Origin: Escherichia coli
GTDB taxonomy: Bacteria > Pseudomonadota > Gammaproteobacteria > Enterobacterales > Enterobacteriaceae
Reading direction: 5' to 3' (one strand)
DNA length: 64,000 bases
Assembly (NCBI RefSeq): GCF_024223415.1
Contig: NZ_CP100500.1
A model generated the notes under the pieces. It saw only the letters and a program-made list of their open reading frames with translations, had not been told where the DNA came from and ran no database searches. A program made the translations under genes and the position numbers. Below, piece after piece: positions 2,840 to 40,048 of the stretch. Within the stretch, counting starts at the first letter, position 1, and each line of letters begins with the position of its first letter.

Positions 2840-4840
2840 TCATCCTTGTTGCTGAAGCATGGGGAATAATTGTTCGCAAAGCAAAACACCGTTATTCATT
2901 GCTTCTACCCGTGCCTCGCTTTCTGTATTACGAAATTGTCCCAACACATGTGCCAGCCGATAAAAACCCACCGCGGTGAGGTCATTCGCCAGCAACTCTG
3001 CCTGACCAATAGCACTCTGTTCCTGATAGCGCCAGCCGTTATGGAGCAGTTGAATAAGTAACGCCTGGCAGCGTATCAGCAACTGATGAGCAGTAGACGG
3101 CACAGGCAAAACGCTGGCAGAAGGTAGCGGTGCCACAGGCGTAGTTTCTGCGTCCAGCGCCCAGGCACGGGTTTTTGTCATCATCACCCGTGGTTCCAGT
3201 GTCAATTGCCCTTCAACAAAACTGACAAAGCCAGAAACCAGACACACGGGGTCGTCTGTTTGTTGCAAAAGCGCCGCCATGCGTTCAACGGCATAAGGTG
3301 CGCTGGCTGAGGCTGGTAATGATAACGTCAGCACATTATCTTCCCCTTCGCCGCTAATGACCTGCGCATCCAGCGTCTGGCGGCTGCTGTCCCAACCGAG
3401 CGAAATACACTCAGCGACCGGCAGAATAAATAAGTTATCGACCTGATTAAGAGGCCGTATGCAGGCGGGGGGACGCTGGCGTAAATATTCCCGCAAAGCC
3501 ACAATGCCCGGCTGGCGTAACGGCGCGCTCAACATTTGCCAGGCATCAGGCGACAGCGGCACAACGCTGCTTAAGCGGTTGCGGGTAGCTAACAGCAGCT
3601 CGCCATCGGCACTGCGTTTTGCTGCTTGTGAAACAATTTGCCCGCCCGCCAGTGCGCCAGCCTGAAAACTAAACAGCCGACGCGTAGCTGCCGGTGAGTT
3701 TTCCTGTTCACTTCGCGGCCAACTGCGCGAAAGGTGCAAAATACTGCCGGTGTCGGGATCGGTAAACCAGATGCGTAAACCATAATGCTCAATATCCTGC
3801 CAGCAACGCATACCTAAAGACACCAGCCGCAGATGATCAAGCTTTGCTTCTCCGGCAATGCCAGAGCCAACGACCGTGCGCCACGGCACAGGAGGAACTT
3901 CACCAATACTGTCGCGCCGGGCCATCTCTTGTGCGCAATTTAATCGACTGTTTAATGCCGCAAGCTGATGTAAGCATTCTCCGGCATTATAGTGGCTGGC
4001 GCGGGCGTGGAAGGCATCAACGCTGGCGCGCAGTTGCCGTAGCGATTCACTCACCCAGCGCCAGTTGCAGGTCTCTGCCGCCTGCAATGCGCGGTTGAAT
4101 GCTGCCTCGTAATGGATGAGCGGCTGGCTGATGCCGCCAAGCCATAATGTCTGGCTTAATTGCTGAACATATTGACGACACGCGTTGCCTTCTTCGCTGG
4201 CAAACGGATCGTCAGATGATGTGACGTGTTCGCTGCGCATCTGCCAGATTAAATGGTTAAATTCTGCTTGCTGCGCTTTGGCCTCGACGAAGGCCTGTAC
4301 CGCCAGTACGACATGTTCGCAAAGTGTGCCTTCAATACAATCACAACGGGCGAAACGAATACTGCTGCGGGAATAAAAACGCACATCGCTCATCGGTAAG
4401 CGGGCAGAGGGAATTTCACCCGGCGCACAGAACAACTCAATGGTGATGCCTTTAGCGACCAGCGCCTGTGCGCGTTTGCGGGTAGCATCGGGAAGGGTAG
4501 CCAGTTCTTCCAGCCAGATTGCCGGATCCCACTCTTCTTCTTTTTCCGTAGACTGAGTGGTGGCACAAAGTCGTTGATAACTTAACACCAGCATCACGCG
4601 ATGACGGCACATACCGTTGGCCCCGCAACTGCACTGAGCCTCTTTCAGTGCCTGGCCGTTCGCCAGCTGGGTACGGACACCGTCACTGAAGGTGGCGATT
4701 AAAGCGTCGTTCTCATGGCTGATCTCCGGGACGTTGCCATTTTCCAGTTCCTTAAGACTGCGCTTAACAAAACCGGCATTGCTTAACGCCGTCAGGGCCT
4801 GCGGTGTCAGTTCTAATAATTCCGGACGTAGTGAATTCAT
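2840..4840 (-). CDS. yehQ: SWIM zinc-finger domain protein YehQ
   Basis: Long ORF; CxC...CxH SWIM-like motif (CSCGANGMCRHRVM); start placed at ATG forming ATGA overlap with yehP stop. Confidence 0.75.
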   Translation of the reverse strand: MNSLRPELLELTPQALTALSNAGFVKRSLKELENGNVPEISHENDALIATFSDGVRTQLANGQALKEAQCSCGANGMCRHRVMLVLSYQRLCATTQSTEKEEEWDPAIWLEELATLPDATRKRAQALVAKGITIELFCAPGEIPSARLPMSDVRFYSRSSIRFARCDCIEGTLCEHVVLAVQAFVEAKAQQAEFNHLIWQMRSEHVTSSDDPFASEEGNACRQYVQQLSQTLWLGGISQPLIHYEAAFNRALQAAETCNWRWVSESLRQLRASVDAFHARASHYNAGECLHQLAALNSRLNCAQEMARRDSIGEVPPVPWRTVVGSGIAGEAKLDHLRLVSLGMRCWQDIEHYGLRIWFTDPDTGSILHLSRSWPRSEQENSPAATRRLFSFQAGALAGGQIVSQAAKRSADGELLLATRNRLSSVVPLSPDAWQMLSAPLRQPGIVALREYLRQRPPACIRPLNQVDNLFILPVAECISLGWDSSRQTLDAQVISGEGEDNVLTLSLPASASAPYAVERMAALLQQTDDPVCLVSGFVSFVEGQLTLEPRVMMTKTRAWALDAETTPVAPLPSASVLPVPSTAHQLLIRCQALLIQLLHNGWRYQEQSAIGQAELLANDLTAVGFYRLAHVLGQFRNTESEARVEAMNNGVLLCEQLFPMLQQQG

Positions 4841-28643: not shown

Positions 28644-28718
28644 TGTTTGTTGTTGTTCGTCGTTGTTCGTAGAGCTTCAACAAAATGTGTGGTCAGTTGT
28701 GTGGTCAGTTTTTTGAGG
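28644..28718. repeat. Left copy of ~75-bp near-identical direct repeat just inside the island end
   Basis: ttgttcgtcgttgttcgtagagcttcaacaaaatgtgtggtcagttgtgtggtcagtttt shared with 39821-39895; contains internal TTGTTCGT and TGTGGTCAGTT sub-repeats. Confidence 0.85.
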
Positions 28719-28745
28719 CTGGAGGACTGAAAAGAGGATCTGATA

Positions 28746-29969
28746 GTGGGAAAAGCACTAAACAAACTGAGCGATTCGACGTTAAAAAAATTGGCGTCTG
28801 TCCAAGCAGAAAAAGAGCGTTTTTACTCCGACGGGGGCGGGCTGGAGATTAAACACTCAAAGGGCGGCAAATTAACCTGGTATTTCCGGTACCGAACGGG
28901 AGGCCGTGAGGTTGCCGCAGAGCGGTTAAAGCTGGGGGCTTACCCTGAATTGTCGCTGAAAGCTGCAAGGGAAAAACGCGCACAGTGCCGGGCATGGCTG
29001 GCTGAGGGTAAAAACCCCCGTTATGAGTTGTGCGCCACAGTACAGGAAGCGCTAAAACCCGTTACGGTGAAGGAGGCGATTAACTACTGGCTGGATGAAT
29101 ATGCGAAGGATAACCGCAAAGACTACATAAAGCTGGTGCAACGTATGGATAAGCACATCATTTGCCATATAGGGGCAATTCCCCTTGATAAGTGTGATAC
29201 AAGGCAGTGGATCGCATGTTTTGACCGTGTACGAAAAAAAGCACCAGTAGCAGCAGGGCACGTCATGCAAACCTGCAAACAGGCGCTAAAGTTCTGCCGC
29301 AGGAGACGCTACGCGTTCAGTAATGCCCTGGACGATTTGATCGTCAGCGATGTGGGTAAGAGAGCAGAAATTCGCGAGAGGGTGCACAGCAACAGCGAAT
29401 TAAAGGAAATTTTACGCGCTATTGATGGTGATGTGTTCGCGCCTTACTACAGCGCGTTAATGCGCTTGCTGATTGTGTTCGGGTGCAGAACGGCAGAGGT
29501 CAGACTTTCAGAGATCAAAGAATGGGATCTGAAAGAAATGTTGTGGACAGTGCCAAAAGAGCATAGCAAAACGAAGGTAACGATATTCAGGCCAATCCCC
29601 GATGGCATTTTGCCGTTCATTCAGAAGCTGGTGGAGCAGAACCGGCATACAGGGTTATTACTCGGAGAACTGAAAAAAGATACCACGGTAGCGCAATATG
29701 GGCGAAATGCGCATAAGCGGCTTAACCAGGAACACTGGACGCTGCATGACTTTCGCCACACGTTTACAACGATGCTGAACGATTTAGGTGTCGATCCGCA
29801 TATCGTGGAGCACATCACAGCGCATCAGATGCCCGGTCAGCAAAAAACCTATAACCATTCACGCTATTTACAGGCGAAGCGAGACGCTCTGAATCTGTGG
29901 GTTGAGCGCCTCGATGTGCTGGCTGGAAATCATGAAAATATTGTCATATTAAGGGCTGAAAATGAATAA
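28746..29969 (+). CDS. int: Tyrosine recombinase, P4-type integrase
   Basis: N-terminal arm-binding-like segment (SDGGGLEIKHSKGGKLTWYFRYR) and C-terminal catalytic region (HDFRHTFTT...); apparent GTG start. Confidence 0.9.
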   Translation: MGKALNKLSDSTLKKLASVQAEKERFYSDGGGLEIKHSKGGKLTWYFRYRTGGREVAAERLKLGAYPELSLKAAREKRAQCRAWLAEGKNPRYELCATVQEALKPVTVKEAINYWLDEYAKDNRKDYIKLVQRMDKHIICHIGAIPLDKCDTRQWIACFDRVRKKAPVAAGHVMQTCKQALKFCRRRRYAFSNALDDLIVSDVGKRAEIRERVHSNSELKEILRAIDGDVFAPYYSALMRLLIVFGCRTAEVRLSEIKEWDLKEMLWTVPKEHSKTKVTIFRPIPDGILPFIQKLVEQNRHTGLLLGELKKDTTVAQYGRNAHKRLNQEHWTLHDFRHTFTTMLNDLGVDPHIVEHITAHQMPGQQKTYNHSRYLQAKRDALNLWVERLDVLAGNHENIVILRAENE

Positions 29970-30747
29970 TCTGGGCCGTGTATATCATACGCTGCCAATG
30001 GCAGCTAAAAAAATGGGATGTACTGTAGAGGATATTCTACATTTTGGTGCAACTAACCGACTTGAAATATGTGCGTATATTGATGATATTGAACAGAGAA
30101 AAGATTATTGCACTTTTAATGTGTTTTTTGATAATGAAGATAGCGAGAATAGTTTTTCTAAAACTATAAATAAATATAATTCCATATTTACTGACATGTA
30201 TGAAATATCATTGTTTAATTATAATGATGAGTTTTGTGTTGATGATGAGCGTATGGTTATTGAAGGTTTGTATGCTAATCATATGAAAGGCTTTTTTGCA
30301 ATACCATCTGAATTTCTTGTCGAAGTTGAATTGTCAAGTGCCTGTGAAATCATAAATCTATCGCCTCGTTATTTATATACACCGAAAGGTTATGGTGATT
30401 ATATTCGGTTGGATAGTATAGAAGGTCTTTCTATTCCAGAAAACAGGCTCGTGATATTCGATAGTGAGATATCGGGTTTTAATTATCAAAAGAAACCTAA
30501 ATATGCCGGAGGTGAAAGAGAATCACCTAAAACCAGAGCTAAAAAAGCCGAGATAATACCTGCTCTCATAAAACTGATCCCTGAGATGCAAGATGTGGAT
30601 TTGGAGGATACACCCGTATCCAAAATTGCAGAAATGATAGAGGTTATTGCTGCACAAAGAGGGGTTGAGTTACCTAGCACTCACAGGCAGACATGGCAGA
30701 AATATTTAGGGCGTGATGCTGGTGACGTTCCAAAACGTCAAAAGTGA
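29962..30747 (+). CDS. Hypothetical cargo protein, AT-rich, translationally coupled to int
   Basis: 261-aa ORF overlapping int stop by 8 bp; noticeably lower GC than flanks; no motif recognised. Confidence 0.6.
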   Translation: MNNLGRVYHTLPMAAKKMGCTVEDILHFGATNRLEICAYIDDIEQRKDYCTFNVFFDNEDSENSFSKTINKYNSIFTDMYEISLFNYNDEFCVDDERMVIEGLYANHMKGFFAIPSEFLVEVELSSACEIINLSPRYLYTPKGYGDYIRLDSIEGLSIPENRLVIFDSEISGFNYQKKPKYAGGERESPKTRAKKAEIIPALIKLIPEMQDVDLEDTPVSKIAEMIEVIAAQRGVELPSTHRQTWQKYLGRDAGDVPKRQK

Positions 30748-30803
30748 TATCACGTACAGATAGTGTGATATCACACAAACGGCATTTTACCACCGCCTAG
30801 AAT

Positions 30804-30837
30804 CGTCCTCGTTCGGCAACGTTCGAGGACGTTTTTT
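30804..30837 (+). terminator. Hairpin plus T-run immediately upstream of alpA start
   Basis: cgtcctcg...cgaggacg followed by TTTTTT then ATG; the 3' arm contains the GAGGA Shine-Dalgarno-like sequence. Confidence 0.5.
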
Positions 30838-31062
30838 ATGAATCAAAATACACAATTTCAATCACTATCAGATCGCGTAATCCGTGAGGATGAATGCCGT
30901 AAGTTAACAGGAGTGTGCCGCACTACACGCTACGAACTGGAGAAAAAAGGGAGCTTTCCGTCTCGCCGTAATCTTGGTGGGCGTTCTGTAGGTTGGCTGC
31001 TGTCCGAGGTTATGGAATGGGTTAAAAGCCGGGATCGCATTAATTCAGGCAAGGCAGCGTAA
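30838..31062 (+). CDS. alpA: AlpA-family phage transcriptional regulator
   Basis: 74-aa small HTH protein with typical AlpA-like pattern (SDRVIREDECRKLTGVCRTTRYELEKKGSFP). Confidence 0.8.
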   Translation: MNQNTQFQSLSDRVIREDECRKLTGVCRTTRYELEKKGSFPSRRNLGGRSVGWLLSEVMEWVKSRDRINSGKAA

Positions 31063-31200
31063 AGGGGAGTATATGACACATAAAACAAAGGCGACCGGGG
31101 GCGGTCGCCAATGGGAAAACACTAAACATAAGCCCGGCCATCATAGCGATTTGCTGGCTGGTGGGCAATGTGTCCAGTGTGGTGGCTTGCTGGTGGATTG

Positions 31201-31428
31201 TCAGCCAGGCGGTCGGTTTTTGCCGGATTTAAGCCGCCGTGGGTATTTATCGACAAAATCTTCAAGGGCAAATTTTTCTGGTGGCACTAAGCGCGGCGCT
31301 GGTGGTGGTATTTTTGTTCTGGTTAGTTCTTCCTCAAGTCTGGCGCAGGCTTCTGACTGCCTTTGCCGGATGATTTCATCATCTTGCGTTTGCGTGTCTT
31401 GTATTGGTGATAGTGTGTTGTTGGTCAT
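31201..31428 (-). CDS. Hypothetical protein, second gene of leftward operon
   Basis: 75-aa ORF downstream of the RHH-like gene on the minus strand, followed by a hairpin at 31094-31112. Confidence 0.45.
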   Translation of the reverse strand: MTNNTLSPIQDTQTQDDEIIRQRQSEACARLEEELTRTKIPPPAPRLVPPEKFALEDFVDKYPRRLKSGKNRPPG

Positions 31429-31485
31429 GATACTGCCCTGTAAAGCAATGCGCCGTAGTACCTCACACCACGGCGCTGATAGTGA

Positions 31486-31683
31486 TTATTCTGATTCTTT
31501 GGCCTTGCGGCGCTGTTCATATTTTAATTTGCGTCCACAGGCATCTAAGACCCATGCGGAAAAATTAGCACTAGGATTAGTTAATTTTTCTTGTTCAACG
31601 CTGGCATCAATCCCATCTATAAGCTCATGTGGGAATCGAATATTTTTCTTTGCTGATTTGTTGTTTGTGTTACCACTAGACAT
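31486..31683 (-). CDS. Putative ribbon-helix-helix DNA-binding protein, candidate island repressor
   Basis: 65-aa ORF; N-terminal KKNIRFPHELIDGID resembles the beta-strand/helix of CopG/Arc-type RHH proteins; divergent from rightward operon. Confidence 0.45.
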   Translation of the reverse strand: MSSGNTNNKSAKKNIRFPHELIDGIDASVEQEKLTNPSANFSAWVLDACGRKLKYEQRRKAKESE

Positions 31684-31710
31684 TGATGCACCTCACTTAA
31701 ATGGACTTTA

Positions 31711-31790
31711 TGGGCGCACACAATACAGCAAAAAAAGTGAGAAGTTAAGTATTGACATGTGCGCACACATGATTCTAATCTGTGCGCACA
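31711..31790. promoter_or_regulatory. Divergent promoter/operator region with three copies of palindrome TGTGCGCACA
   Basis: tgggcgcaca (31711-31720), tgtgcgcaca (31758-31767), tgtgcgcaca (31781-31790); TTGACA at 31752-31757 immediately precedes the second site. Confidence 0.55.
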
Positions 31791-31882
31791 GTTTGGGTTG
31801 CATTGCTCAAATTAAGCAACGCCCCGCAGTGCTCGCAACACATGCAGGGCGTCTAACCAAACCGTTAATAGGAGTAACGATT

Positions 31883-32083
31883 ATGGCTGGAACACAGCAT
31901 ACCCCACGCCTTGCGCACACACAAACCGCCTTTGTGTGGCGTTTTCTGGCACTGAGTGCCGGAGAATCTCAAATTATCCACGTAACCGCCTGGACGGAAC
32001 GCGAAGCGCGTAACCGTTGCCCGTCCGGTTGTGTCGCTGTATTCGCCGCCCGTATCCGTCAGGGGGAAACCTATGCACAATAA
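31883..32083 (+). CDS. Small protein, possibly Icd-like (host cell division inhibitor family)
   Basis: 67-aa ORF with good RBS (aggag), first gene of rightward operon; family assignment from memory of similar small P4-like proteins, weak. Confidence 0.4.
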   Translation: MAGTQHTPRLAHTQTAFVWRFLALSAGESQIIHVTAWTEREARNRCPSGCVAVFAARIRQGETYAQ

Positions 32084-32303
32084 AACAACACCGGACGCAG
32101 CAGAAGAAGCAATGCAAATACTGATACGTGCGCTCGTTGATGTTACCCACATGGTGGAGATTATGGAGAGAAAATCACAGTCGGAGCACGACAAAAGAAA
32201 ACTTAAAACAATAAAAATAATTGCCAAAAACTCGCTGATAAAAGTTACAGACATCCTTAATGAGGACATTAAAAGAATCAGGGAGAAAGTGTGTGATGCA
32301 TAA
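32073..32303 (+). CDS. Hypothetical protein
   Basis: 76-aa ORF, start overlaps upstream stop, RBS ggggga. Confidence 0.45.
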   Translation: MHNKTTPDAAEEAMQILIRALVDVTHMVEIMERKSQSEHDKRKLKTIKIIAKNSLIKVTDILNEDIKRIREKVCDA

Positions 32304-32523
32304 AATACCTTTTGATGTTCTTATTCATTCTGAAAACGCATTAATCCGTGCAAAGGAAATGGACGCATTACTACTTAAGTTAATTGATGTGCCGGAAAGT
32401 GGCGATGAATCTGATTCAATAATGTTTTCTGCCGTGCGTACGCTATTAACGCATGTTATTAATGAATTAAATACAGTGATGGCAATTCACGAGAATAATA
32501 AAGCGCAGCACACCGGAGAATAA
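32296..32523 (+). CDS. Hypothetical protein
   Basis: 75-aa ORF, start overlaps upstream stop, RBS gggaga. Confidence 0.45.
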   Translation: MHKIPFDVLIHSENALIRAKEMDALLLKLIDVPESGDESDSIMFSAVRTLLTHVINELNTVMAIHENNKAQHTGE

Positions 32524-32528
32524 AAACC

Positions 32529-32828
32529 ATGAAAAATAAAAATTCTGGCGTTAATGCCAGCGGCCCCGCTCGGCCTGAATTTATGAACGGCGATATTTAC
32601 CGCGACCAGTACGGCGGCACGGTAACGATTAAAGGCGTGGAGGAACGGCGCATCACTTACCGCCGTGAAGGCTACGAATATGATTGCGTGATGCCTGTTT
32701 ATCAGTTCCGGCGTGATTTTTCTCTGGTACAGGCAGCGCCCCGCAGTAAACCAACCAGCAGGGAGAAAGCACGCGCCAATATTCAGGAAATAAAAAAGAT
32801 GCTTAACGTATTCAGGGGTAAAAAATGA
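32529..32828 (+). CDS. Hypothetical protein
   Basis: 99-aa ORF, ATGA-coupled to the primase gene. Confidence 0.45.
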   Translation: MKNKNSGVNASGPARPEFMNGDIYRDQYGGTVTIKGVEERRITYRREGYEYDCVMPVYQFRRDFSLVQAAPRSKPTSREKARANIQEIKKMLNVFRGKK

Positions 32829-34573
32829 AACTGGCACCGAACGTAAAAAAACAGCCGCGTGGAATAAAACACAAAGACACAGAGGTGATTATCTTTGCGG
32901 GTAGTGATGCCTGGGCGCACGCGAAACAGTGGCAGGAACAGGACGGCCCCGCATCCGGCGATGATGTGCCGCCTGTGTGGCTCGGGCCAAATCAGCTTGC
33001 TGAACTGGATGCACTGAAAATTGTACCGGAGGGAAAAAAACGCGTAAGGCTGTACAGGGCCGGAGAACTGGATTTGGTGGAGACCAAAAAGATTGGTCAG
33101 AAGCTGGCGGCGGCAGATATTCAGGATGCGAATTTTTACTCTGAAGGAATGCACGGCCAGAAGGTGCAGAACTGGCGGCGCTATCTGAGTGCTGAGCGTG
33201 AAAATATTGCCGCAGGGCTTACCATGCCGGAACAGAAAAAAGCACAACTTTCACAGATGGCAGACAGTGAACGGGCACAGCTTCTTTCTTCCCGCTTTGA
33301 TGGTGTCTGCGTCCATGCAGAAAGTGAAATCGTTCACGTATGGCGCGGCGGGGTATGGTGTCCGGTCAGCACAATGGAACTTAGCCGCGAAATGGTGGCG
33401 ATCTATTCAGAGCACAGGGCCACTTTCAGCAAGCGCGTAATCAATAACGCCGTGGAAGCGTTAAAAGTTATTGCCGAACCAATGGGCGAGCCGTCCGGCG
33501 ATTTGCTGCCGTTCGCCAATGGTGCGCTTGACCTGAAAACGGGGGAATTTTCCCCGCACACGCCGGAGAACTGGATCACCACGCACAACGGCATTGAGTA
33601 CACGCCACCAGCACCAGGGGAGAATATCTGCGACAACGCGCCAAACTTTCATAAATGGCTTGAGCACGCAGCCGGAAAAGACCCGCGCAAGATGATGCGT
33701 ATATGTGCCGCGCTGTACATGATTATGGCGAACCGGTACGACTGGCAGATGTTTATTGAGGCCACCGGAGACGGCGGGAGCGGCAAAAGTACATTCACAC
33801 ACATAGCCAGCCTTCTGGCAGGGAAACAGAACACGGTAAGCGCTGAGATGACATCGCTTGATGATGCTGGTGGGCGTGCGCAGGTTGTCGGGAGTCGGCT
33901 TATTGTCCTGGCAGACCAGCCGAAATATACAGGCGAAGGAACGGGCATCAAGAAAATCACGGGCGGAGACCCCGTGGAAATAAACCCGAAATATGAGAAG
34001 CGTTTTACGGCGGTAATCAGGGCGGTGGTGCTGGCTACCAACAATAACCCGATGATATTCACCGAACGGGCCGGAGGTGTGTCACGTCGTCGCGTAATTT
34101 TCCGTTTCGACAATATCGTCAGTGAGGCTGAAAAAGACAGGGAGCTACCGGAAAAGATTGCGGCTGAAATCCCTGTCATTATCCGCCGCTTGCTGGCGAA
34201 CTTTGCCGACCCTGAAAAGGCACGGGCTTTACTCATTGAACAGCGAGACGGTGATGAAGCTCTGGCAATAAAGCAACAGACGGATCCGGTTATTGAGTTT
34301 TGCCAGTTTCTGAATTTTCTGGAGGAAGCGCGCGGCCTGATGATGGGCGGCGGCGGTGACTCTTCCAGGTACACGACCAGAAACAGCCTTTACCGCGTCT
34401 ATCTGGCGTTTATGGCGTATGCAGGCAGGAGCAAACCGCTAAACGTAAATGACTTTGGCAAGGCTATGAAGCCAGCGGCGAAAGTTTACGGACATGAATA
34501 TATAACGCGCAGGATTAAAGGGTTTACGCAAACCAACGTGACAACAACAGACGACTGCGACGCGTTTTTATAA
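32825..34573 (+). CDS. Phage/plasmid primase, P4 family (NTPase/helicase domain)
   Basis: 582-aa ORF with Walker A GDGGSGKST and D5/P4-alpha-like C-terminal NTPase architecture. Confidence 0.8.
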   Translation: MKLAPNVKKQPRGIKHKDTEVIIFAGSDAWAHAKQWQEQDGPASGDDVPPVWLGPNQLAELDALKIVPEGKKRVRLYRAGELDLVETKKIGQKLAAADIQDANFYSEGMHGQKVQNWRRYLSAERENIAAGLTMPEQKKAQLSQMADSERAQLLSSRFDGVCVHAESEIVHVWRGGVWCPVSTMELSREMVAIYSEHRATFSKRVINNAVEALKVIAEPMGEPSGDLLPFANGALDLKTGEFSPHTPENWITTHNGIEYTPPAPGENICDNAPNFHKWLEHAAGKDPRKMMRICAALYMIMANRYDWQMFIEATGDGGSGKSTFTHIASLLAGKQNTVSAEMTSLDDAGGRAQVVGSRLIVLADQPKYTGEGTGIKKITGGDPVEINPKYEKRFTAVIRAVVLATNNNPMIFTERAGGVSRRRVIFRFDNIVSEAEKDRELPEKIAAEIPVIIRRLLANFADPEKARALLIEQRDGDEALAIKQQTDPVIEFCQFLNFLEEARGLMMGGGGDSSRYTTRNSLYRVYLAFMAYAGRSKPLNVNDFGKAMKPAAKVYGHEYITRRIKGFTQTNVTTTDDCDAFL

Positions 34574-34597
34574 TTTTTTGTAATTGCTGTCTACCCT

Positions 34598-34815
34598 GTC
34601 TACCTGAGTAAAGAAAAATACATTTAATTCAGTGCATTAAGTTAGGTAGATAGCCTTTTTTTACTGTCTACCCACTATCTACCCTCTCTACCTGATTTTA
34701 CCAGAATCAGACAGGGAGGTAGACACGGGGTAGATAGTGGATAAAAGCACTCTACCCCGCTGAAAGCCGCGCCATTACTGGCATGAGGGCCACTAAGGTA
34801 GGTAAGGTAGACAAG
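34598..34815. repeat. Iteron cluster, putative island replication origin
   Basis: Many direct and inverted copies of GTCTACC/TCTACCC/GGTAGA motifs immediately downstream of the primase gene. Confidence 0.6.
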
Positions 34816-34861
34816 GGGAGGCACAACTCAAAACTTTTTAAACGAGGGGGTAAAAATAAAA

Positions 34862-35119
34862 ATGCACACATCAGAAAAATTTAACAATCAGAAGAAATCA
34901 CATAACCGCGCCATTGACCTTACAGAGCACTGGCTGAGGGTGGCGATAAAAATCATCGACCGCAACGCGGGAGAAGGATACGCGAAAGCACATCCCGAAC
35001 TGATAAGCGCATTCATGACCACAGCGGCGGCAAACTTTGCCACGTTGACAGAACGGGAGATTGCCGAAGCGGAACAGGTGACAACCATCAATGTTAAAAC
35101 CGGAGAGCAGACAGCATGA
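34862..35119 (+). CDS. Hypothetical protein
   Basis: 85-aa ORF, ATGA-coupled to ssb. Confidence 0.45.
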   Translation: MHTSEKFNNQKKSHNRAIDLTEHWLRVAIKIIDRNAGEGYAKAHPELISAFMTTAAANFATLTEREIAEAEQVTTINVKTGEQTA

Positions 35120-35526
35120 CAGCACAGATAGCGGCTTACGGGCGGCTGGTGGACGACCCGCAGACAAAACAGACCAGCAAGGGAACACCGATGACGCTGG
35201 CACGTATGGCGGTATCGCTGCCATGCAGCCAGGCACAGGATGGACAGGCGACGTTATGGCTATCGGTCATCGCATTTGGTAAGCAGGCCGACTTCCTGGC
35301 TAAACATCAAAAAGGCGACGTTGCCAGCGTATCCGGCACGATGCAGGTCAGCCAGTGGACCGGACAGAACGGGGAAACGCGGCAGGGTTATCAGGTTATT
35401 GCAGACAGCGTAATCAGTGCCCGTGCGGCACGTCCTGGCGGGAACAGACGCAAAACCACAGGCACACAGGGTAATCAGCCACCAGCGGGAGGCGATGACC
35501 CTTACGGTGATGATATTCCGTTCTGA
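35116..35526 (+). CDS. ssb: Single-stranded DNA-binding protein
   Basis: OB-fold-like N-terminus, Gly/Pro-rich linker and acidic C-terminal tail ending DDIPF. Confidence 0.8.
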   Translation: MTAQIAAYGRLVDDPQTKQTSKGTPMTLARMAVSLPCSQAQDGQATLWLSVIAFGKQADFLAKHQKGDVASVSGTMQVSQWTGQNGETRQGYQVIADSVISARAARPGGNRRKTTGTQGNQPPAGGDDPYGDDIPF

Positions 35527-35536
35527 GGGGGTGACG

Positions 35537-35809
35537 ATGGTACATGACCGGATAGCGGAGGAACTGGAGGCGAAAGGATTTTACCGGAGGGCGGCCGCGC
35601 GATGGGGTGAAGTTATGAGGCTGGTGAGCACTGACAAGGAGCGCGAACAGGTGGCAATGCGACGGCTGGAATGTTCACAGAAGGCACAGAGGCCACCGGA
35701 GCCGCCGGATGATTTAGGCGCTCTGAAAAGGTCAGTTAATCGCACTGAAAAACAAATGGGGATAGCTGGTATTGGCAAAGCAATATGGCGCAACTACCCG
35801 CAGAAGTGA
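35537..35809 (+). CDS. Small putative transcriptional regulator, PerC-like
   Basis: 90-aa ORF; resemblance to PerC-family prophage regulators is from memory and weak. Confidence 0.4.
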   Translation: MVHDRIAEELEAKGFYRRAAARWGEVMRLVSTDKEREQVAMRRLECSQKAQRPPEPPDDLGALKRSVNRTEKQMGIAGIGKAIWRNYPQK

Positions 35810-35815
35810 GCACAC

Positions 35816-35839
35816 AGCCGGAGCAATCCGGCTTTTTTG
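35816..35839 (+). terminator. Intrinsic terminator
   Basis: agccggagcaatccggc followed by TTTTTT. Confidence 0.6.
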
Positions 35840-35843
35840 CACC

Positions 35844-35887
35844 CAAAAAAAGCCCGATAAGTACAGGAGGCATCTTATCGGGCTTTT
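35844..35887. terminator. Second hairpin, bidirectional-looking
   Basis: A-run, stem gcccgataag...cttatcgggc, T-run. Confidence 0.55.
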
Positions 35888-35966
35888 GCATATGAGGTTT
35901 TTTTTGGTGCACTGACACACATGATCGGGATAATCATTTCATAATTTGCAACGTAACTCAATATTG

Positions 35967-36015
35967 TTGCGCAAAATGCAATCATGATTATAATCAGGAC
36001 TGGATGAACATCCAG
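35967..36015 (+). promoter_or_regulatory. Sigma70-like promoter with downstream dyad operator ahead of the capsid operon
   Basis: TTGCGC (35967-35972), 16-bp spacer, TATAAT (35989-35994), then perfect dyad ctggatgaacatccag (36000-36015). Confidence 0.5.
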
Positions 36016-36050
36016 TTATGATTTTTTAAGTCAAAGAGGAATTTCTGACT

Positions 36051-36257
36051 ATGGCAGAAGAGAAAAAAGGCGGGGTGACGGTCTACATAAGCCCCGACAT
36101 CGTGGAGGCGCTCAAGGAACGCCACCAGCAGAATGTAAAAGCAGGCATTGCGGCAGGACTTGATCCGCTGGCGATGGTTGAGCCGTCAACAGGCTGGCAG
36201 GTGCGTACCTATTTACGTGCGGCGCTGGGTATCAATCAGGTTCACGGAGGTGAATAA
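36051..36257 (+). CDS. Hypothetical small protein, first gene of capsid operon
   Basis: 68-aa ORF with RBS, stop overlaps capsid gene start. Confidence 0.45.
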   Translation: MAEEKKGGVTVYISPDIVEALKERHQQNVKAGIAAGLDPLAMVEPSTGWQVRTYLRAALGINQVHGGE

Positions 36258-37312
36258 TGACAGGCAAAGCAACGGCACTTACAACTAACCAGCTTTTCGC
36301 GTACCTGAATCGCGGGGATATTTCGGAATTAAAATTCAGTCCGCTGTTTACCACGCTGTTTTTCCCGAACGTGGCGACCTTCAACACCCAAAACATCATG
36401 CTGGACACCCTGGACATTGAAGAGGTTACGATGTCAGCGTTCTGTTCGCCTATGGTGGGTAGTCAGGTCCAGCGCGATAAAGGGTACGAAACCAGCACAA
36501 TCAAACCTGGCTACATGAAGCCAAAGCACGAAATCGATCCAACAAAGACCATCATGCGCATGGCTGGAGAAGATCCGGCACAGCTTAACGACCCAACCTA
36601 TCGCCGTATGCGCCTGATTACTGGCAACATGCGCCGCCAGGTAAACGCCATTAAAGCGCGTGTTGAATGGCTGGCGGTGAATGCGGTAACGACCGGAAAA
36701 AACATCATTGAGGGCGAAGGCATAGAACGCTATGAAATCGACTGGAAAATACCGGAAAACTGCATCATACAGCAGGCCAGTGGTAAAAAATGGTCCCAGC
36801 AGGATAAAGACATGCACGACCCAATCTATGACATCGAGCTTTATGCTGATCAGGCAGGTTGCCCCGCCAACGTCATGATTATGGGCGGTGAGGTATGGCG
36901 CACATTACGCAGCTTTAAAAAATTCCGTGAACTGTACGATCTTTCCCGTGGATCAGAATCCGCCGCCGAGCTGGCCTGTAAAAACCTGGGCGAAGTGGTG
37001 AGCTTTAAAGGCTATCTTGGTGATCTGGCCCTTATCGTCTATTCCGGCAAATACACTGACAGCGACGGCACCGAAAAATATTTCCTTGAGCCTGATTTGC
37101 TGGTCCTGGGTAACACCAATAATAAAGGGCTGGTGGCATATGGTGCGATTATGGATCAGGAAGCGGTAAGAACGGGCGCAACGCAAAACATGTACTACCC
37201 GAAAAACTGGATTGAGGACGGCGATCCGGCGATTGAGTACGTGCAGACGCACAGCGCACCGCAGCCGGTACCGGCAGATATTCGCAAATTTGTTACCGTC
37301 AAAATTGCTTAA
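36257..37312 (+). CDS. Major capsid protein, lambda gpE-like
   Basis: Clear blocks of similarity to lambda gpE from memory: KFSPLFTTLFF, KPGYMKPKHEIDP, EDPAQLNDPTYRRMR, YSGKY, YPKNWIEDGDPA. Confidence 0.85.
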   Translation: MTGKATALTTNQLFAYLNRGDISELKFSPLFTTLFFPNVATFNTQNIMLDTLDIEEVTMSAFCSPMVGSQVQRDKGYETSTIKPGYMKPKHEIDPTKTIMRMAGEDPAQLNDPTYRRMRLITGNMRRQVNAIKARVEWLAVNAVTTGKNIIEGEGIERYEIDWKIPENCIIQQASGKKWSQQDKDMHDPIYDIELYADQAGCPANVMIMGGEVWRTLRSFKKFRELYDLSRGSESAAELACKNLGEVVSFKGYLGDLALIVYSGKYTDSDGTEKYFLEPDLLVLGNTNNKGLVAYGAIMDQEAVRTGATQNMYYPKNWIEDGDPAIEYVQTHSAPQPVPADIRKFVTVKIA

Positions 37313-37323
37313 CGGGGGATTCT

Positions 37324-37659
37324 ATGGACGCTCCATATATTGAGTTATTTGCAGGCAGCCAGCAGGTATCCACGACGCTGGTACATTTTGCCGCTGATGC
37401 TGGCGTTATTCAGGAATTTACCCCGCTGATGCTGGCAGACAATGGCGAGTTTAAGGCGTGGGATGGTCAGGAATCTGGCAAAGCTGTTTATCTGACTTCG
37501 CACCCCGTGGACACGTCAAAGCAGAAATCAGCACAGTGTTACAAAACGGGGATATTCAATATTGCCGCCGTTAACTGGCCTGACAGCGTCGACACCGATG
37601 CGAAAAAATGCGCCGCCTTTGCGGGTTCCGGCGTATCCGTTCAGCCGCTGGCCCGATAA
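37324..37659 (+). CDS. Head decoration protein, lambda gpD-like
   Basis: Similarity to lambda gpD blocks: TPLMLADNGEFKAWDG and YKTG.F....WPDSVDTDAKKCAAFAGSGVSV. Confidence 0.75.
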   Translation: MDAPYIELFAGSQQVSTTLVHFAADAGVIQEFTPLMLADNGEFKAWDGQESGKAVYLTSHPVDTSKQKSAQCYKTGIFNIAAVNWPDSVDTDAKKCAAFAGSGVSVQPLAR

Positions 37660-37671
37660 GCAGGGGGAACG

Positions 37672-38085
37672 ATGGCAACGAATGAAAGTATCATGACGCT
37701 ACCGCTGGCGAGTAAATTTAAAGCCGAAGCGCGGGCAATGGCTGACAGAGGTTTATCAACCTACGAGGCCATACACCGACTAAACAAACTGGAAGAACAG
37801 GACAAGCCGCGCGCTGATGCGATTATGGCGCTTCATGAATCTGACGACTACCAGCCGCTGTTACGTGCAATGGCTAACGTGCCTTGTATCGATGTTGGTA
37901 CGGCTAAAAGCATCCTTAGCATGACCATAGAGCAGGAACGCCCGAAGGTTGCACCAGAGCTTACTTCAGCCTTTGAAAACTTTATGGACATGCACAGCCC
38001 GAAAGCCGTATCAGCTGGCATGGCATACGATGGCAGAACCCCGTGCGATGACGGCGACATCGACCGCATACTGAAAACCATCTGA
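37672..38085 (+). CDS. Hypothetical head-module protein
   Basis: 137-aa ORF directly after the decoration gene; no motif recognised. Confidence 0.45.
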   Translation: MATNESIMTLPLASKFKAEARAMADRGLSTYEAIHRLNKLEEQDKPRADAIMALHESDDYQPLLRAMANVPCIDVGTAKSILSMTIEQERPKVAPELTSAFENFMDMHSPKAVSAGMAYDGRTPCDDGDIDRILKTI

Positions 38086-38090
38086 GACAA

Positions 38091-38116
38091 GGCCGGAGAA
38101 ATCCGGCTTTTTTTGC
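38091..38116 (+). terminator. Intrinsic terminator after capsid operon
   Basis: aggccggagaaatccggc followed by TTTTTTT; near-duplicate of the hairpin at 35816. Confidence 0.6.
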
Positions 38117-38200
38117 GGGTCCTTTCCGGCATGTGGACCCGTTACGGGGCGTCGACCTCGCACGTTTTCGCTATTTATGACGTTTTTCCGTGAAGGTGAC
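38115..38200 (+). other. Lambda-like cos site (cosQ-cosN-proximal cosB), copy 1, upstream of terS-like gene
   Basis: gggtcctttccgg...gttacg GGGCGTCGACCT cgcacgttttcgctatttatga closely resembles remembered lambda cos (gggtcctttccgg...gttacg GGGCGGCGACCT cgcgggttttcgctatttatgaaaa). Confidence 0.7.
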
Positions 38201-38247
38201 ACCACCACCACTTGATTAATATTTAACCATGTAGTTAAGGTAACATT

Positions 38248-38682
38248 ATGATTGATAAAGCTTGTTTTGTAAGTCAGCAGGAAATAGCTGAACATTTCAA
38301 TGTTAACAGAACCACTATTCGCGCATGGACCAAACAGGGGATGCCGTATCTTAATGCGGATCGCGGAAAGTCTGGCGGTTATCACATCGGGCATACATTG
38401 TTTTGGTATTCAGGTAAAAGCCATCTTCAGACCATCGGATATCACGTAGAAACCAGTGCGCTGGAAAAAATTATGTTTGCCAGGCTGCTTTCATCTGAGC
38501 GTGACGAGTACTCCAGTGAAGAAACAGAACATCGATTTGATGAAGGTTTGCAGATTTACGGCTATTCACCGGAAGATGTGAGCAAGGCACGAAATAAAAT
38601 GGCTGGCTTTCTGGCTGGGTGGCGTCATGCCGTAAGCGTTCGCCGTGCCAGCATGGAGCAATCAGCCGATACAGAACAGTAA
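38248..38682 (+). CDS. Terminase small subunit-like protein (Nu1-like winged-helix N-terminus)
   Basis: N-terminus QQEIAEHFNVNRTTIRAWTKQGMPYL parallels lambda Nu1 KKQLADIFGASIRTIQNWQEQGMPVL; C-terminal part is divergent. Confidence 0.7.
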   Translation: MIDKACFVSQQEIAEHFNVNRTTIRAWTKQGMPYLNADRGKSGGYHIGHTLFWYSGKSHLQTIGYHVETSALEKIMFARLLSSERDEYSSEETEHRFDEGLQIYGYSPEDVSKARNKMAGFLAGWRHAVSVRRASMEQSADTEQ

Positions 38683-38714
38683 AGCCGATAACTTGTTAAT
38701 CACGCGCAGCAATG

Positions 38715-38850
38715 CGTGTGATTTTTGCACACTTCCGGTTAACGGGTACGATGTCCGGTTTGTTTGTACATTTTTTGCACATGTCCGGTTCGCAGAAAGC
38801 ATGTTTTTATATTTTTCAGATAGTTAACTTGCAGAGAAACCGGACATGGA
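38715..38850. repeat. Direct and inverted repeats TTTTTGCACA..TCCGGTT / AACCGGACATGG downstream of terS-like gene
   Basis: tttttgcacacttccggtt (~38722), ttttttgcacatgtccggtt (~38771), aaccggacatgg (38838-38849). Confidence 0.6.
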
Positions 38851-38930
38851 TCCCGAAAAATTTTCATAAATAGTGAAAACGCGCGGGTTCGACGCCCCGT
38901 AACGGGCCATAATTCCAGAAGGACCCGACG
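38845..38930 (-). other. Lambda-like cos sequence, copy 2, inverted relative to copy 1
   Basis: Reverse complement reads cgggtccttctgg...gttacg GGGCGTCGAACC cgcgcgttttcactatttatgaaaatttttcggg; long imperfect inverted repeat of 38115-38200. Confidence 0.65.
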
Positions 38931-38960
38931 ACACCAGACTATCAGAGCGATGGGGGCACA

Positions 38961-39242
38961 ATGACAGAAGCCGAACTACTGGGATTAATCCGCCGCGTTA
39001 CCGGAATCAGCCAGCAGCATGACGAACAGGCCACGCAGCCGGACAGCGTGACCGCCGAAAATTATGTGCGTGTTGTTGCGGAGGTGATGCGCCGTGACGG
39101 TATTGAGCTTAACGGCGTGGATATGCGCGACATACGGATCCGCGTTCTGGAAATGCTGGCATACCGTCGCCGCGTGCAGACGTACAGGGAAAAAGCAAAA
39201 ATAACGTACCACTGGAAGAAGCCGGAACGACTGCGTACGTAA
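38961..39242 (+). CDS. Hypothetical protein
   Basis: 93-aa ORF downstream of cos copy 2. Confidence 0.4.
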   Translation: MTEAELLGLIRRVTGISQQHDEQATQPDSVTAENYVRVVAEVMRRDGIELNGVDMRDIRIRVLEMLAYRRRVQTYREKAKITYHWKKPERLRT

Positions 39243-39374
39243 TACGTACGGACATCGAGATAACGCAAAATTGCGCTGGCTACATCCCTCACATCTGAGG
39301 ACTGATAACAAGCTGCCTGAAAGACAGTCACAAACTACGAAATTTTCGCAGTTTAATTAATGGTCAGCTTAATC

Positions 39375-39665
39375 GCTAACCCGCTGATATTTTCGGAAAC
39401 ATCAATTTGAGGAAGTCGGCGCGGTAACTCGCTGAACTTAAAGCAAAGCGCAAAATTGCGCTGATTACTGGTTGGAATTGTTCCAGAGTGCAAATTTGCA
39501 CTCTGGCCTAACCCGTTGATTATTTCGAAAACCTGCAATGCAGGAAATCGGGGAAGTAAGCCTAAGCTATTGATTGTTTCGAAAACCACCATTGGGGGAT
39601 GTCGGGAAAGTAAGACTAACCCATTGATTCTTCCACAATCCTCAATGTGAGGAGGCCGGACATCG
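39375..39665. repeat. Four ~54-bp imperfect repeats (three in tandem), each with a variable central CAAT-containing near-palindrome
   Basis: Units at ~39375, 39506, 39560, 39614 share CTAACCC.TTGATT.TTTCGAAAAC and TCGGG.AAGTAAG flanks around a variable centre (e.g. cctgcaatgcagg, cctcaatgtgagg). Confidence 0.7.
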
Positions 39666-39820
39666 TGACAGAGCGTGACAACCAGGTAACTAATCTCGCT
39701 GGTGGGCGTGATGTCGATATGGTGATCCCCATAACGGGTTATCCGTGATCATCCACCAGCTTCATGGCAGATAGCCGGAAAATGATAACGGTTAAGCAAA
39801 ACTGCCAGCAAATTTCCCTT

Positions 39821-39895
39821 TTGTTTGTTATTGTTCGTCGTTGTTCGTAGAGCTTCAACAAAATGTGTGGTCAGTTGTGTGGTCAGTTTTGAGGT
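39821..39895. repeat. Right copy of ~75-bp near-identical direct repeat just inside the island end
   Basis: Same ~60-bp core as 28644-28718. Confidence 0.85.
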
Positions 39896-39953
39896 TTTTA
39901 ATTCTTATGTGCTGAAAAACTTATTAATTATCAACTGATAACAAAAATTAGTA

Positions 39954-39967
39954 AGAAATACCCGTAT
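39954..39967. repeat. attR core: 14-bp direct repeat AGAAATACCCGTAT
   Basis: Identical to 28544-28557; continues directly into riboswitch 3' sequence. Confidence 0.75.
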
Positions 39968-40048
39968 CACCTGATCTGGATAATGCCAGCGTAGGGAAGT
40001 CACGGACCACCAGGTCATTGCTTCTTCACGTTATGGCAGGAGCAAACT
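39954..40048 (+). ncRNA. 3' part of thiM TPP riboswitch (P4/P5 plus expression platform) retained upstream of thiM
   Basis: gaaatacccgtatcacctgatctggataatgccagcgtagggaagtcacggaccaccaggtcattgcttcttcacgttatggcaggagcaaact ATG matches the thiM leader 3' half. Confidence 0.75.

Follow-up and report, generated by a model that had tools for sequence, protein, structure and literature searches.

An EcCICFT073-type island upstream of thiM

The locus lies in a 64,000-nt stretch of Escherichia coli DNA (the window), within a PICI whose insertion point is immediately upstream of the thiM TPP riboswitch and whose ends carry 60-bp direct repeats (28653-28712 and 39831-39890). Based on PHROG assignments, the island encodes an integrase, a primase, an SSB, a gpE-like capsid protein, a gpD-like decoration protein and a Nu3-like protein, in addition to rpp and ORF93. 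The virion-type genes form only a part set, capsid and decoration, as in a PICI. An Rfam scan of the island for an RNA element in the spacer downstream of rpp matched the thiM TPP riboswitch, below the gathering score, and otherwise gave chance-level matches only.

The features of the island and of its packaging module are as follows, with the base pairs of each cos site counted from its cohesive end.

28653-39890, plus strand: PICI of about 11.2 kb, with the direct repeats at both ends and the PHROG gene assignments as evidence
38116-38129, plus strand: cosQ-like element of cos1 (CGGGTCCTTTCCGG), from an alignment to the cosQ side of cos in lambda, 21 and CFT073
38147-38158, plus strand: cosN of cos1, with the 12-nt cohesive end GGGCGTCGACCT, one change (G6T) from lambda and CFT073
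38194-38211, plus strand: proposed Rpp-binding R3-PICI of cos1, bp 48-65, AGGTGACACCACCACCAC, identical to EcCICFT073 cos1
38248-38682, plus strand: rpp (RppA allele, 144 aa), with an ATG start, RppA homology and a match to RppC (6HLK)
38698-38728, plus strand: terminator-like hairpin and T-run after rpp, from an inverted-repeat search; the T-run is the first 'TTTTTGCACA' of the repeat reported by the first-pass annotation
38730-38740, minus strand: fourth, weaker R-like box, AACCGGAAGTG, cos2 bp 158-168, in islands only and past the end of the phage homology
38750-38760, minus strand: R1'-like box, AACCGGACATC, cos2 bp 138-148, inverted, the half of the phage R1 palindrome that the island has kept
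38780-38790, minus strand: R2-like box, AACCGGACATG, cos2 bp 108-118, inverted relative to R3
38814-38826, plus strand: IHF-like site TTTCAGATAGTTA, cos2 bp 72-84, with an adjoining A+T-rich tract and one mismatch to WATCARNNNNTTR
38838-38848, minus strand: R3-like box CATGTCCGGTT, about cos2 bp 49-60, at the distance from cosN of the lambda and N15 R3
38886-38897, minus strand: cosN of cos2, with the cohesive end GGGCGTCGAACC running from 38897, three changes from the canonical GGGCGGCGACCT
38915-38927, minus strand: cosQ-like element of cos2 (CGGGTCCTTCTGG), from the alignment of cos sites

The gene order of the island is that of EcCICFT073, which was described in Fillol-Salom et al. 2018 ISME J (PMC6092414) and 2019 Mol Cell (PMC6739421), and the cos1-rpp-cos2 modules of the two islands are collinear. 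Both islands have a 144-aa protein with R21-T22, the same cos1 cosB, an rpp ATG at bp 102, an inverted cos2 751 bp away with its R boxes, and neighbouring capsid, decoration and ORF93 genes. They differ in the integration site, which is beside phoQ in the CFT073 chromosome and upstream of thiM in the window, in seven amino acids of Rpp, in the cosN changes of the window and in the spacers between the cos2 boxes. The window island is an EcCICFT073-type PICI with an RppA allele at another attachment site. Its rpp and its two cos sites are those of an already known system, whose genetics and structures were established in 2018-2019. A megablast search of 38100-38960 against complete E. coli genomes found the whole module in 52 genomes.

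The cosB of cos1 is identical between the window and EcCICFT073, and the identity over bp -60 to 101 is 95.7%. Fig. S1A of PMC6739421 marks the cosQ, and the R3-PICI position was proposed as an Rpp site by Murialdo & Feiss (PMC9026076). The segment ACCACCACC, reported as conserved in cos1 among RppA-, RppB-, RppC- and RppG-type islands (PMC9026076), lies at cos1 bp 55-63 in the window, and we also see it in RppA-type islands and in locus L074.

The rpp gene and its product

The open reading frame at 38248-38682 can be assigned with high confidence, from its sequence, as an rppA allele, i.e. an Rpp of the Gram-negative cos PICIs and not a terminase. Its product is identical to RppA of EcCICFT073 (c1503 in primer names of the PMC6739421 supplement; gene at L008 19660-20094) in 137 of 144 amino acids (95.1%, same length), and the two genes share 428 of 435 nucleotides (98.4%). 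The gene directly follows a PICI cos site whose cosQ and cosN are lambda-like and whose cosB is not that of a phage, and its ATG lies at bp 102 counted from the cos1 cohesive end, the position also reported for PICI-C (PMC9026076). In a search of solved structures the best match was RppC (6HLK/6HN7), with E=1.6e-33 for 6HLK over residues 2-125, covering both the DNA-binding and the dimerisation parts. RppC, whose complex with lambda TerS 1-98 is 6HN7, has the same winged-helix and helical dimerisation regions and the same cos1-rpp layout, but it has 153 aa and is more distant from the window protein than RppA is; the published identity between RppA and RppC is 43.65% (PMC6739421). The residues R21, T22, T23 and W27 are present in the window protein (...NVNRTTIRAW...), and R21-T22, the alpha2 recognition residues of RppA, are needed for cos1-dependent packaging (PMC6739421).

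The first-pass annotation had described a Nu1-like N-terminus followed by an unrelated and shorter C-terminal half, and this description is accurate. The likeness to Nu1 is restricted to the N-terminal winged helix, residues 8-56, where Pfam Phage_Nu1 matches at model positions 3-52 of 164 (E=0.0074), the structure of the Nu1 DNA-binding domain (1J9I) matches with E=0.013, and blastp aligns 49 aa with the lambda and 21 TerS at 30.6% identity. The C-terminal 90 residues gave no blastp alignment to Nu1-family proteins. The window Rpp thus shares the N-terminal winged helix-turn-helix with lambda gpNu1 and phage 21 gp1, but it is 37-38 aa shorter, lacks the C-terminal half for oligomerisation and TerL binding, and differs in the predicted recognition residues as given in PMC6739421. 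That C-terminal half is common to the lambda, 21 and PhiR12-type TerS and to the TerS of the L002 island, the latter two being 40-47% identical in it within the Nu1 family. The annotation had also offered a choice between a bona fide TerS and an Rpp-like redirector; the redirector is what the RppA and RppC comparisons bear out, and the TerS half of the proposal falls with the missing Nu1 C-terminal half.

TerS binding and redirection are known for RppA, RppB, RppC and a P. gergoviae homologue (PMC6739421). By analogy, on the strength of the 95% identity to RppA, the window Rpp is expected to bind the helper TerS, to block phage packaging and to promote packaging of the island. Six of the seven amino acid changes from RppA fall within residues 52-64. 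All seven nucleotide differences between the two genes are nonsynonymous, and zero synonymous changes among seven is not significant (rough estimate ~0.15), so we make no claim of positive selection on rpp. RefSeq labels these genes as hypothetical proteins, since RefSeq, Pfam and NCBIfam have no Rpp family; our searches of Pfam and NCBIfam found none.

The second cos site and its phage-type repeats

The non-coding spacer from the rpp stop to the start of ORF93 covers 38683-38960 (278 bp), and the direct and inverted repeats that had been noticed there are confirmed. Direct copies of TTTTTGCACAnnTCCGGTT at 38722-38740 and 38772-38790 are 89% identical with a spacing of 50 nt, direct copies of ATGTCCGGTT lie at 38751-38760 and 38781-38790, and an inverted copy, AACCGGACATG, lies at 38838-38848. 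Allowing at most one mismatch, CATGTCCGGTT has three matches in the 64-kb window, all inside 38750-38848, where about one would be expected by chance in the whole window (34/4^11 x 128,000). A search for a sigma-70-like promoter for ORF93 in 38683-38960 found none. Small open reading frames over the repeats, one of them annotated in PhiR12_1, were taken as artefacts because conservation tracks the boxes and not the reading frame.

The repeats were also rightly placed by the annotation on the cosB side of a second cos copy. An inverted repeat of 70 nt with 79% identity links 38124-38193 and 38851-38920, which reveals a second cos in inverted orientation, 751 bp from cos1, and a search with the cosN pattern found only 38144-38161 on the plus strand and 38883-38900 on the minus strand, against 0.17 expected. 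The change G6T occurs in both cosN copies of the window, and that of cos2 has two further changes. The repeat cluster corresponds to the cos2 sequence printed in Fig. S1A of PMC6739421, where the legend describes the cosB sequences of the island as "completely divergent" from those of lambda and phi80.

The layout of cos2 follows that of lambda-like cosB sites in the place of R3 (bp 49-59) and of an inverted R2 at bp 108-118, with a candidate IHF-like site at bp 72-84. R3 has been placed at bp 50-65 in lambda and at bp 48-60 in N15 (PMC9026076), and the annotation of phage 21 (M81255) gives R3 at 50-65, I1 at 72-86, R2 at 107-122 and R1 at 150-165. The box core of the window cos2, CATGTCCGG, resembles the phage 21 core CATGTCGG. 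The IHF-like site is a consensus match, with about 0.5 such sites expected per 215 nt and two mismatches in the relatives. In lambda-like phages the cosB is followed by terS, whereas behind the island cos2 there is no terS; the segment stops within R1, where it meets the convergent rpp at its 3' end. At the place of R1, where the phage relatives have a palindrome with its R3-oriented half at bp 144-154, the R2-oriented half alone survives in the island, together with an extra, island-only box; this fourth box is degenerate in CFT073 and in locus L005.

In the megablast search with 38100-38960, many more genomes than those with the whole module matched over 38741-38903 only, in prophage cos regions with 86-88% identity. 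In the prophage L001 and the isolated phage PhiR12_1 (L004), the matching cos lies between the lysis genes and terS-terL-portal. The window cos2 is 88-89% identical to these PhiR12_1-type phages over bp 1-147 and about 47% identical beyond bp 147, and on the cosQ side (bp -60 to -1) the identity is 55-60%. The homology breaks inside the phage R1 palindrome, AACCGGACATGACCGGTT. For CFT073 cos2, the identity to PhiR12_1 over bp 1-147 reaches 97.3%. Between the window and CFT073 the same segment is 89.8% identical, with differences in the spacers between the boxes, the whole spacer from the rpp stop to the ORF93 ATG is 91.8% identical, and ORF93 is 85.9% identical. Our comparison points to a lambdoid phage of the PhiR12_1/O157-prophage type as the source of the cos2 segment, which comprises the cosQ core, cosN, R3, the I1-like site, R2 and one half of R1. 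A literature search on the origin of the PhiR12 and PhiR5 phages returned nothing relevant.

A scan of IMG/VR with the R3 region collected 63 loci, about 46 of phage type and about 20 of island type. The phage-type loci conserve the same boxes and have terS but no rpp, and the same boxes also occur in islands without rpp. Among the islands, the R2 and R1' columns are variable in 0 of 20 cases, compared with 14 of 60 for the other columns (Fisher p=0.016; 9 distinct island sequences); R3 was left out of this test, since its conservation is circular when the R3 region served as the query.

The PhiR12-type TerS has 169 aa, and its gene lies directly downstream of the matching cosB. Its C-terminal half is of the Nu1 family (40-46% identity with lambda and 21), and its N-terminal DNA-binding domain gave no alignment with the lambda TerS, the 21 TerS or Rpp. 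Among 5426 complete E. coli genomes, 1145 have the DNA that spans cosB R2-R1 and the DNA-binding domain of this TerS, O157:H7 being one of them. The repeats thus look like a phage cosB of a third TerS specificity class, beside those of lambda and 21, with the PhiR12-type TerS as the predicted binding protein, and the CATGTCCGGTT boxes are most likely sites for this phage TerS and not for Rpp. The suggestion of cosB-type recognition elements made from the letters of the window is therefore supported, as the homologous segment in phages is a genuine cosB with terS right behind it. The sole new element in our analysis is that R boxes can be recognised in the cos2 cosB and that this array derives from a phage, of an abundant lambdoid prophage family; the sequence had been published without an assigned function.

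Published and proposed roles of the two cos sites in packaging

The published genetics of EcCICFT073 give the two cos sites unequal roles. With lambda and phi80 helpers, cos1 is required for transfer of the island, which its deletion reduces; deletion of cos2 raises it, slightly or significantly, as seen with the lambda helper; and deletion of both cos1 and cos2 abolishes transfer (PMC6092414). Therefore cos2 is costly with such helpers, and it retains some function, because the residual transfer left after loss of cos1 vanishes when cos2 is deleted too. RppA binds the helper TerS and lowers transfer of plasmids with phage cos; a plasmid with cos1 is transferred more in its presence, one with cos2 is not (PMC6739421). 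In cosB swaps, the RppA effect was conferred by the cos1 cosB only (PMC6739421 Fig. 6).

We consider it likely that the gene is an rppA allele acting at cos1, and that the repeats downstream are a phage-derived cosB of cos2 made of phage-TerS boxes and not the Rpp target. In the mechanism that we propose, the helper, a lambda-, phi80- or 21-like phage, would supply a Nu1-type TerS that heterodimerises with Rpp, and the Rpp-bound TerS would no longer read the phage cosB. The terminase would instead be sent to the island cos1, through the short cosB at about 38194-38211 upstream of rpp. The PhiR12-type TerS, with its different N-terminal DNA-binding domain, would read the CATGTCCGGTT R boxes of cos2. 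The second site would then be a low-efficiency, Rpp-independent start of packaging in the opposite direction, leftwards through rpp, and it may serve best with helpers whose own TerS is the cognate one. The cos2 of the window is probably weakened by its three cosN substitutions.

The first-pass annotation implied that Rpp pairs with the repeats next to it, and this is probably wrong. The idea that the repeats are binding sites of the adjacent Rpp or of an Rpp-TerS complex, i.e. an island-specific cosB, draws on their position beside rpp and on the Nu1-like winged-helix domain of Rpp. We hold it to be very unlikely, since the EcCICFT073 cosB-swap and plasmid assays put the action of RppA at the cos1 cosB and not at cos2 (PMC6739421), cos2 is dispensable (PMC6092414), and about 46 phage-type loci with terS and no rpp conserve these boxes, which also occur in islands that lack rpp. 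In addition, the segment conserved across Rpp-type islands is ACCACCACC in cos1 (PMC9026076). That the reading frame encodes a genuine island TerS recruiting the helper TerL directly is scarcely credible to us. In its favour, the N-terminus resembles the Nu1 DNA-binding domain and matches in PHROG ('terminase small subunit', E=6e-9 over residues 7-54), and the related island L002 has a full-length Nu1-family TerS at the same position, but the window protein has no likeness to the half of Nu1 that oligomerises and binds TerL, and in the 95%-identical EcCICFT073 system the helper TerS is strictly required (PMC6739421, PMC6092414).

A different matter is whether the phage-derived cos2 still does anything. 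We tentatively entertain, as a serious possibility, that cos2 and its repeats are a non-functional scar of recombination between the island and a PhiR12-type phage, kept because it is recent and refreshed by co-resident prophages. The cosN of cos2 is substituted in 5 of 20 island sequences including the window, where three positions of the 12-nt overhang are changed, and in none of the 41 phage-type sequences. In the RppC island, which has the different cohesive end GGGCGGCAGACG, cos2 is so heavily decayed that it is barely recognisable; both this decay and the cosN substitutions fit relaxed selection. The benefit of losing cos2 in lambda-mediated transfer (PMC6092414) points the same way, as do the homology that stops inside the phage R1 and the mosaic character of the region, in which the CFT073 cos2 is closer to the phage than to the window cos2 while rpp is 98.4% identical. 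Against a mere scar, the R2 and R1' boxes are invariant among the islands within variable flanks, the canonical cosN of cos2 is kept in 15 of the 20 island sequences, and the loss of cos2 on top of cos1 removes the residual transfer (PMC6092414). The unrelated L002-type islands, with a full-length Nu1-family TerS in place of rpp, also keep an inverted cos2, with a different set of canonically arranged boxes, GTCAGATCC, at bp 51, 113 and 151. For the phage source of this L002-type cos2, PhiR5_1 and SerU-LTIIb matched only partly, and PhiR5_1 has no GTCAGATCC boxes.

We regard as doubtful a further proposal, that cos2 is a second origin of packaging in working order and that unmodified TerS from PhiR12_1/O157-type prophages reads its R boxes. 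If it were true, RppA islands would have two strategies, namely Rpp with cos1 against the terminases of lambda, phi80 and 21 type, and a phage-cognate cos2 of opposite orientation for a third TerS class that Rpp may not be able to bind. The cos2 boxes of the L002-type islands could then represent the same strategy tuned to another helper.

The recognition of the cos2 cosB as that of a prophage family gives two leads. One is a hypothesis for the retention of a second, inverted cos, as an extension of the helper range or as a scar. The other is the possible third class of cosB/TerS specificity among lambda-like phages, beside lambda and 21.

Prophage 4 of CFT073 is of 21 type. Its deletion abolished transfer of the island even though CFT073 also carries a PhiR12-type prophage, which speaks against a working cos2; the result is confounded because the island is not induced without prophage 4. 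The PhiR12-type prophage lies at potB and appears to be 'prophage 2' of this strain, judging from the gene order and from the published element 3 being the island.

Mosaicism of cos2 and changes in rpp

The region is mosaic, and sequence comparisons point to a recent recombination between the island cos2 and phage cos. Over bp 1-147, counted from the cohesive end, cos2 of EcCICFT073, the characterised island of strain CFT073 (L008, position 20309), is 97.3% identical to the cos of phage PhiR12_1 (L004, position 2647). It is only 89.8% identical to cos2 in the window (position 38897), and hence nearer to the phage, despite the 98.4% identity between the rpp genes adjoining cos2 in the window and CFT073.

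The window rpp (38248-38682, plus strand) differs from the CFT073 rppA (L008, 19660-20094) by seven nucleotides, all seven of them nonsynonymous, and six of these changes fall in codons 52-64 (L52F, S54Y, R59H, E61Q, A62T and R64G). We speculate that the clustered substitutions might tune the TerS partner range, though the pattern alone is not statistically significant. These six codons lie near the helix making the dimer contact of the DNA-binding domain in TerS.

The two cosN copies in the window are as follows.
38147-38158: cosN of cos1, with G6T relative to lambda and CFT073
38886-38897: cosN of cos2, with G6T relative to lambda and CFT073 and two more changes

The G6T change common to both copies (GGGCGTCGACCT and GGGCGTCGAACC) could come from gene conversion between the inverted cosN copies, or it could reflect a helper phage having that overhang. 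Among the loci tabulated, a variant cosN at cos2 is confined to islands, with 5 of 20 island sequences having one and 0 of 41 phage-type sequences.

A PhiR12-type prophage is located ~30 kb from EcCICFT073 in CFT073 itself.
L072, 26500-27238: cos and 169-aa TerS of the PhiR12-type prophage at potB

The R2 box of this prophage is changed (AACCGGGCATG). The gene order suggests that it is the 'prophage 2' of the literature, the deletion of which was reported to leave the island transfer unaffected.

Related islands with and without rpp

The same cos2 but no rpp is found in nine islands taken from IMG/VR (L009, L010, L014, L015, L029, L043, L048, L066 and L067). The gap between cos1 and cos2 in these islands is only 536-542 bp, an A+T-rich stretch with a 36-aa ORF and, in inverted orientation, a remnant of the 3' end of rpp. 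The cosB of their cos1 is similar to that of a sister island in an O157-type strain.
L002 (NZ_CP027546), 3100-4110: sister island adjoining phoQ

A full-length TerS of the Nu1 family (180 aa) occupies the rpp position in the L002 island. The cosB of its cos1 has GGTGGTGGTGG, which is the Rpp-type CCACCACCACC in reverse complement and lies roughly as far from cosN. The boxes of its cos2 form another set, in which GTCAGATCC stands in forward orientation at bp 51 and 151 and is inverted at bp 113.

An RppC island was also collected from IMG/VR.
L074, 2400-3400: RppC island

Its cos1 differs in the cohesive end (GGGCGGCAGACG) and retains ACACCACCACCAC, the rpp ATG is at bp 102, and its cos2 is strongly decayed.

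Neighbouring genes and the insertion site

The other features of the island and its right boundary in the window are listed below.
36257-38085: region encoding lambda gpE-like capsid and gpD-like decoration proteins
38961-39242: 93-aa ORF of unknown function (phrog_1561), on the cosQ side of cos2
39831-39890: right att repeat
39880-40014: match to the thiM TPP riboswitch, 36.4 bits, under the gathering score

Deletion of the capsid and decoration homologues in EcCICFT073 was reported to give no phenotype. A 137-aa protein encoded in the same region matches, through its residues 47-118, the C-terminal, Nu3/scaffold-like part of the head-protease family phrog_53. The 93-aa ORF is conserved at this place beside cos2 in all the island types examined, including the RppC and L002 islands. 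The stretch from the rpp terminator to its ATG showed no promoter-like site. The right att repeat overlaps the 5' end of the riboswitch match, and the island is inserted directly upstream of the thiMD leader.
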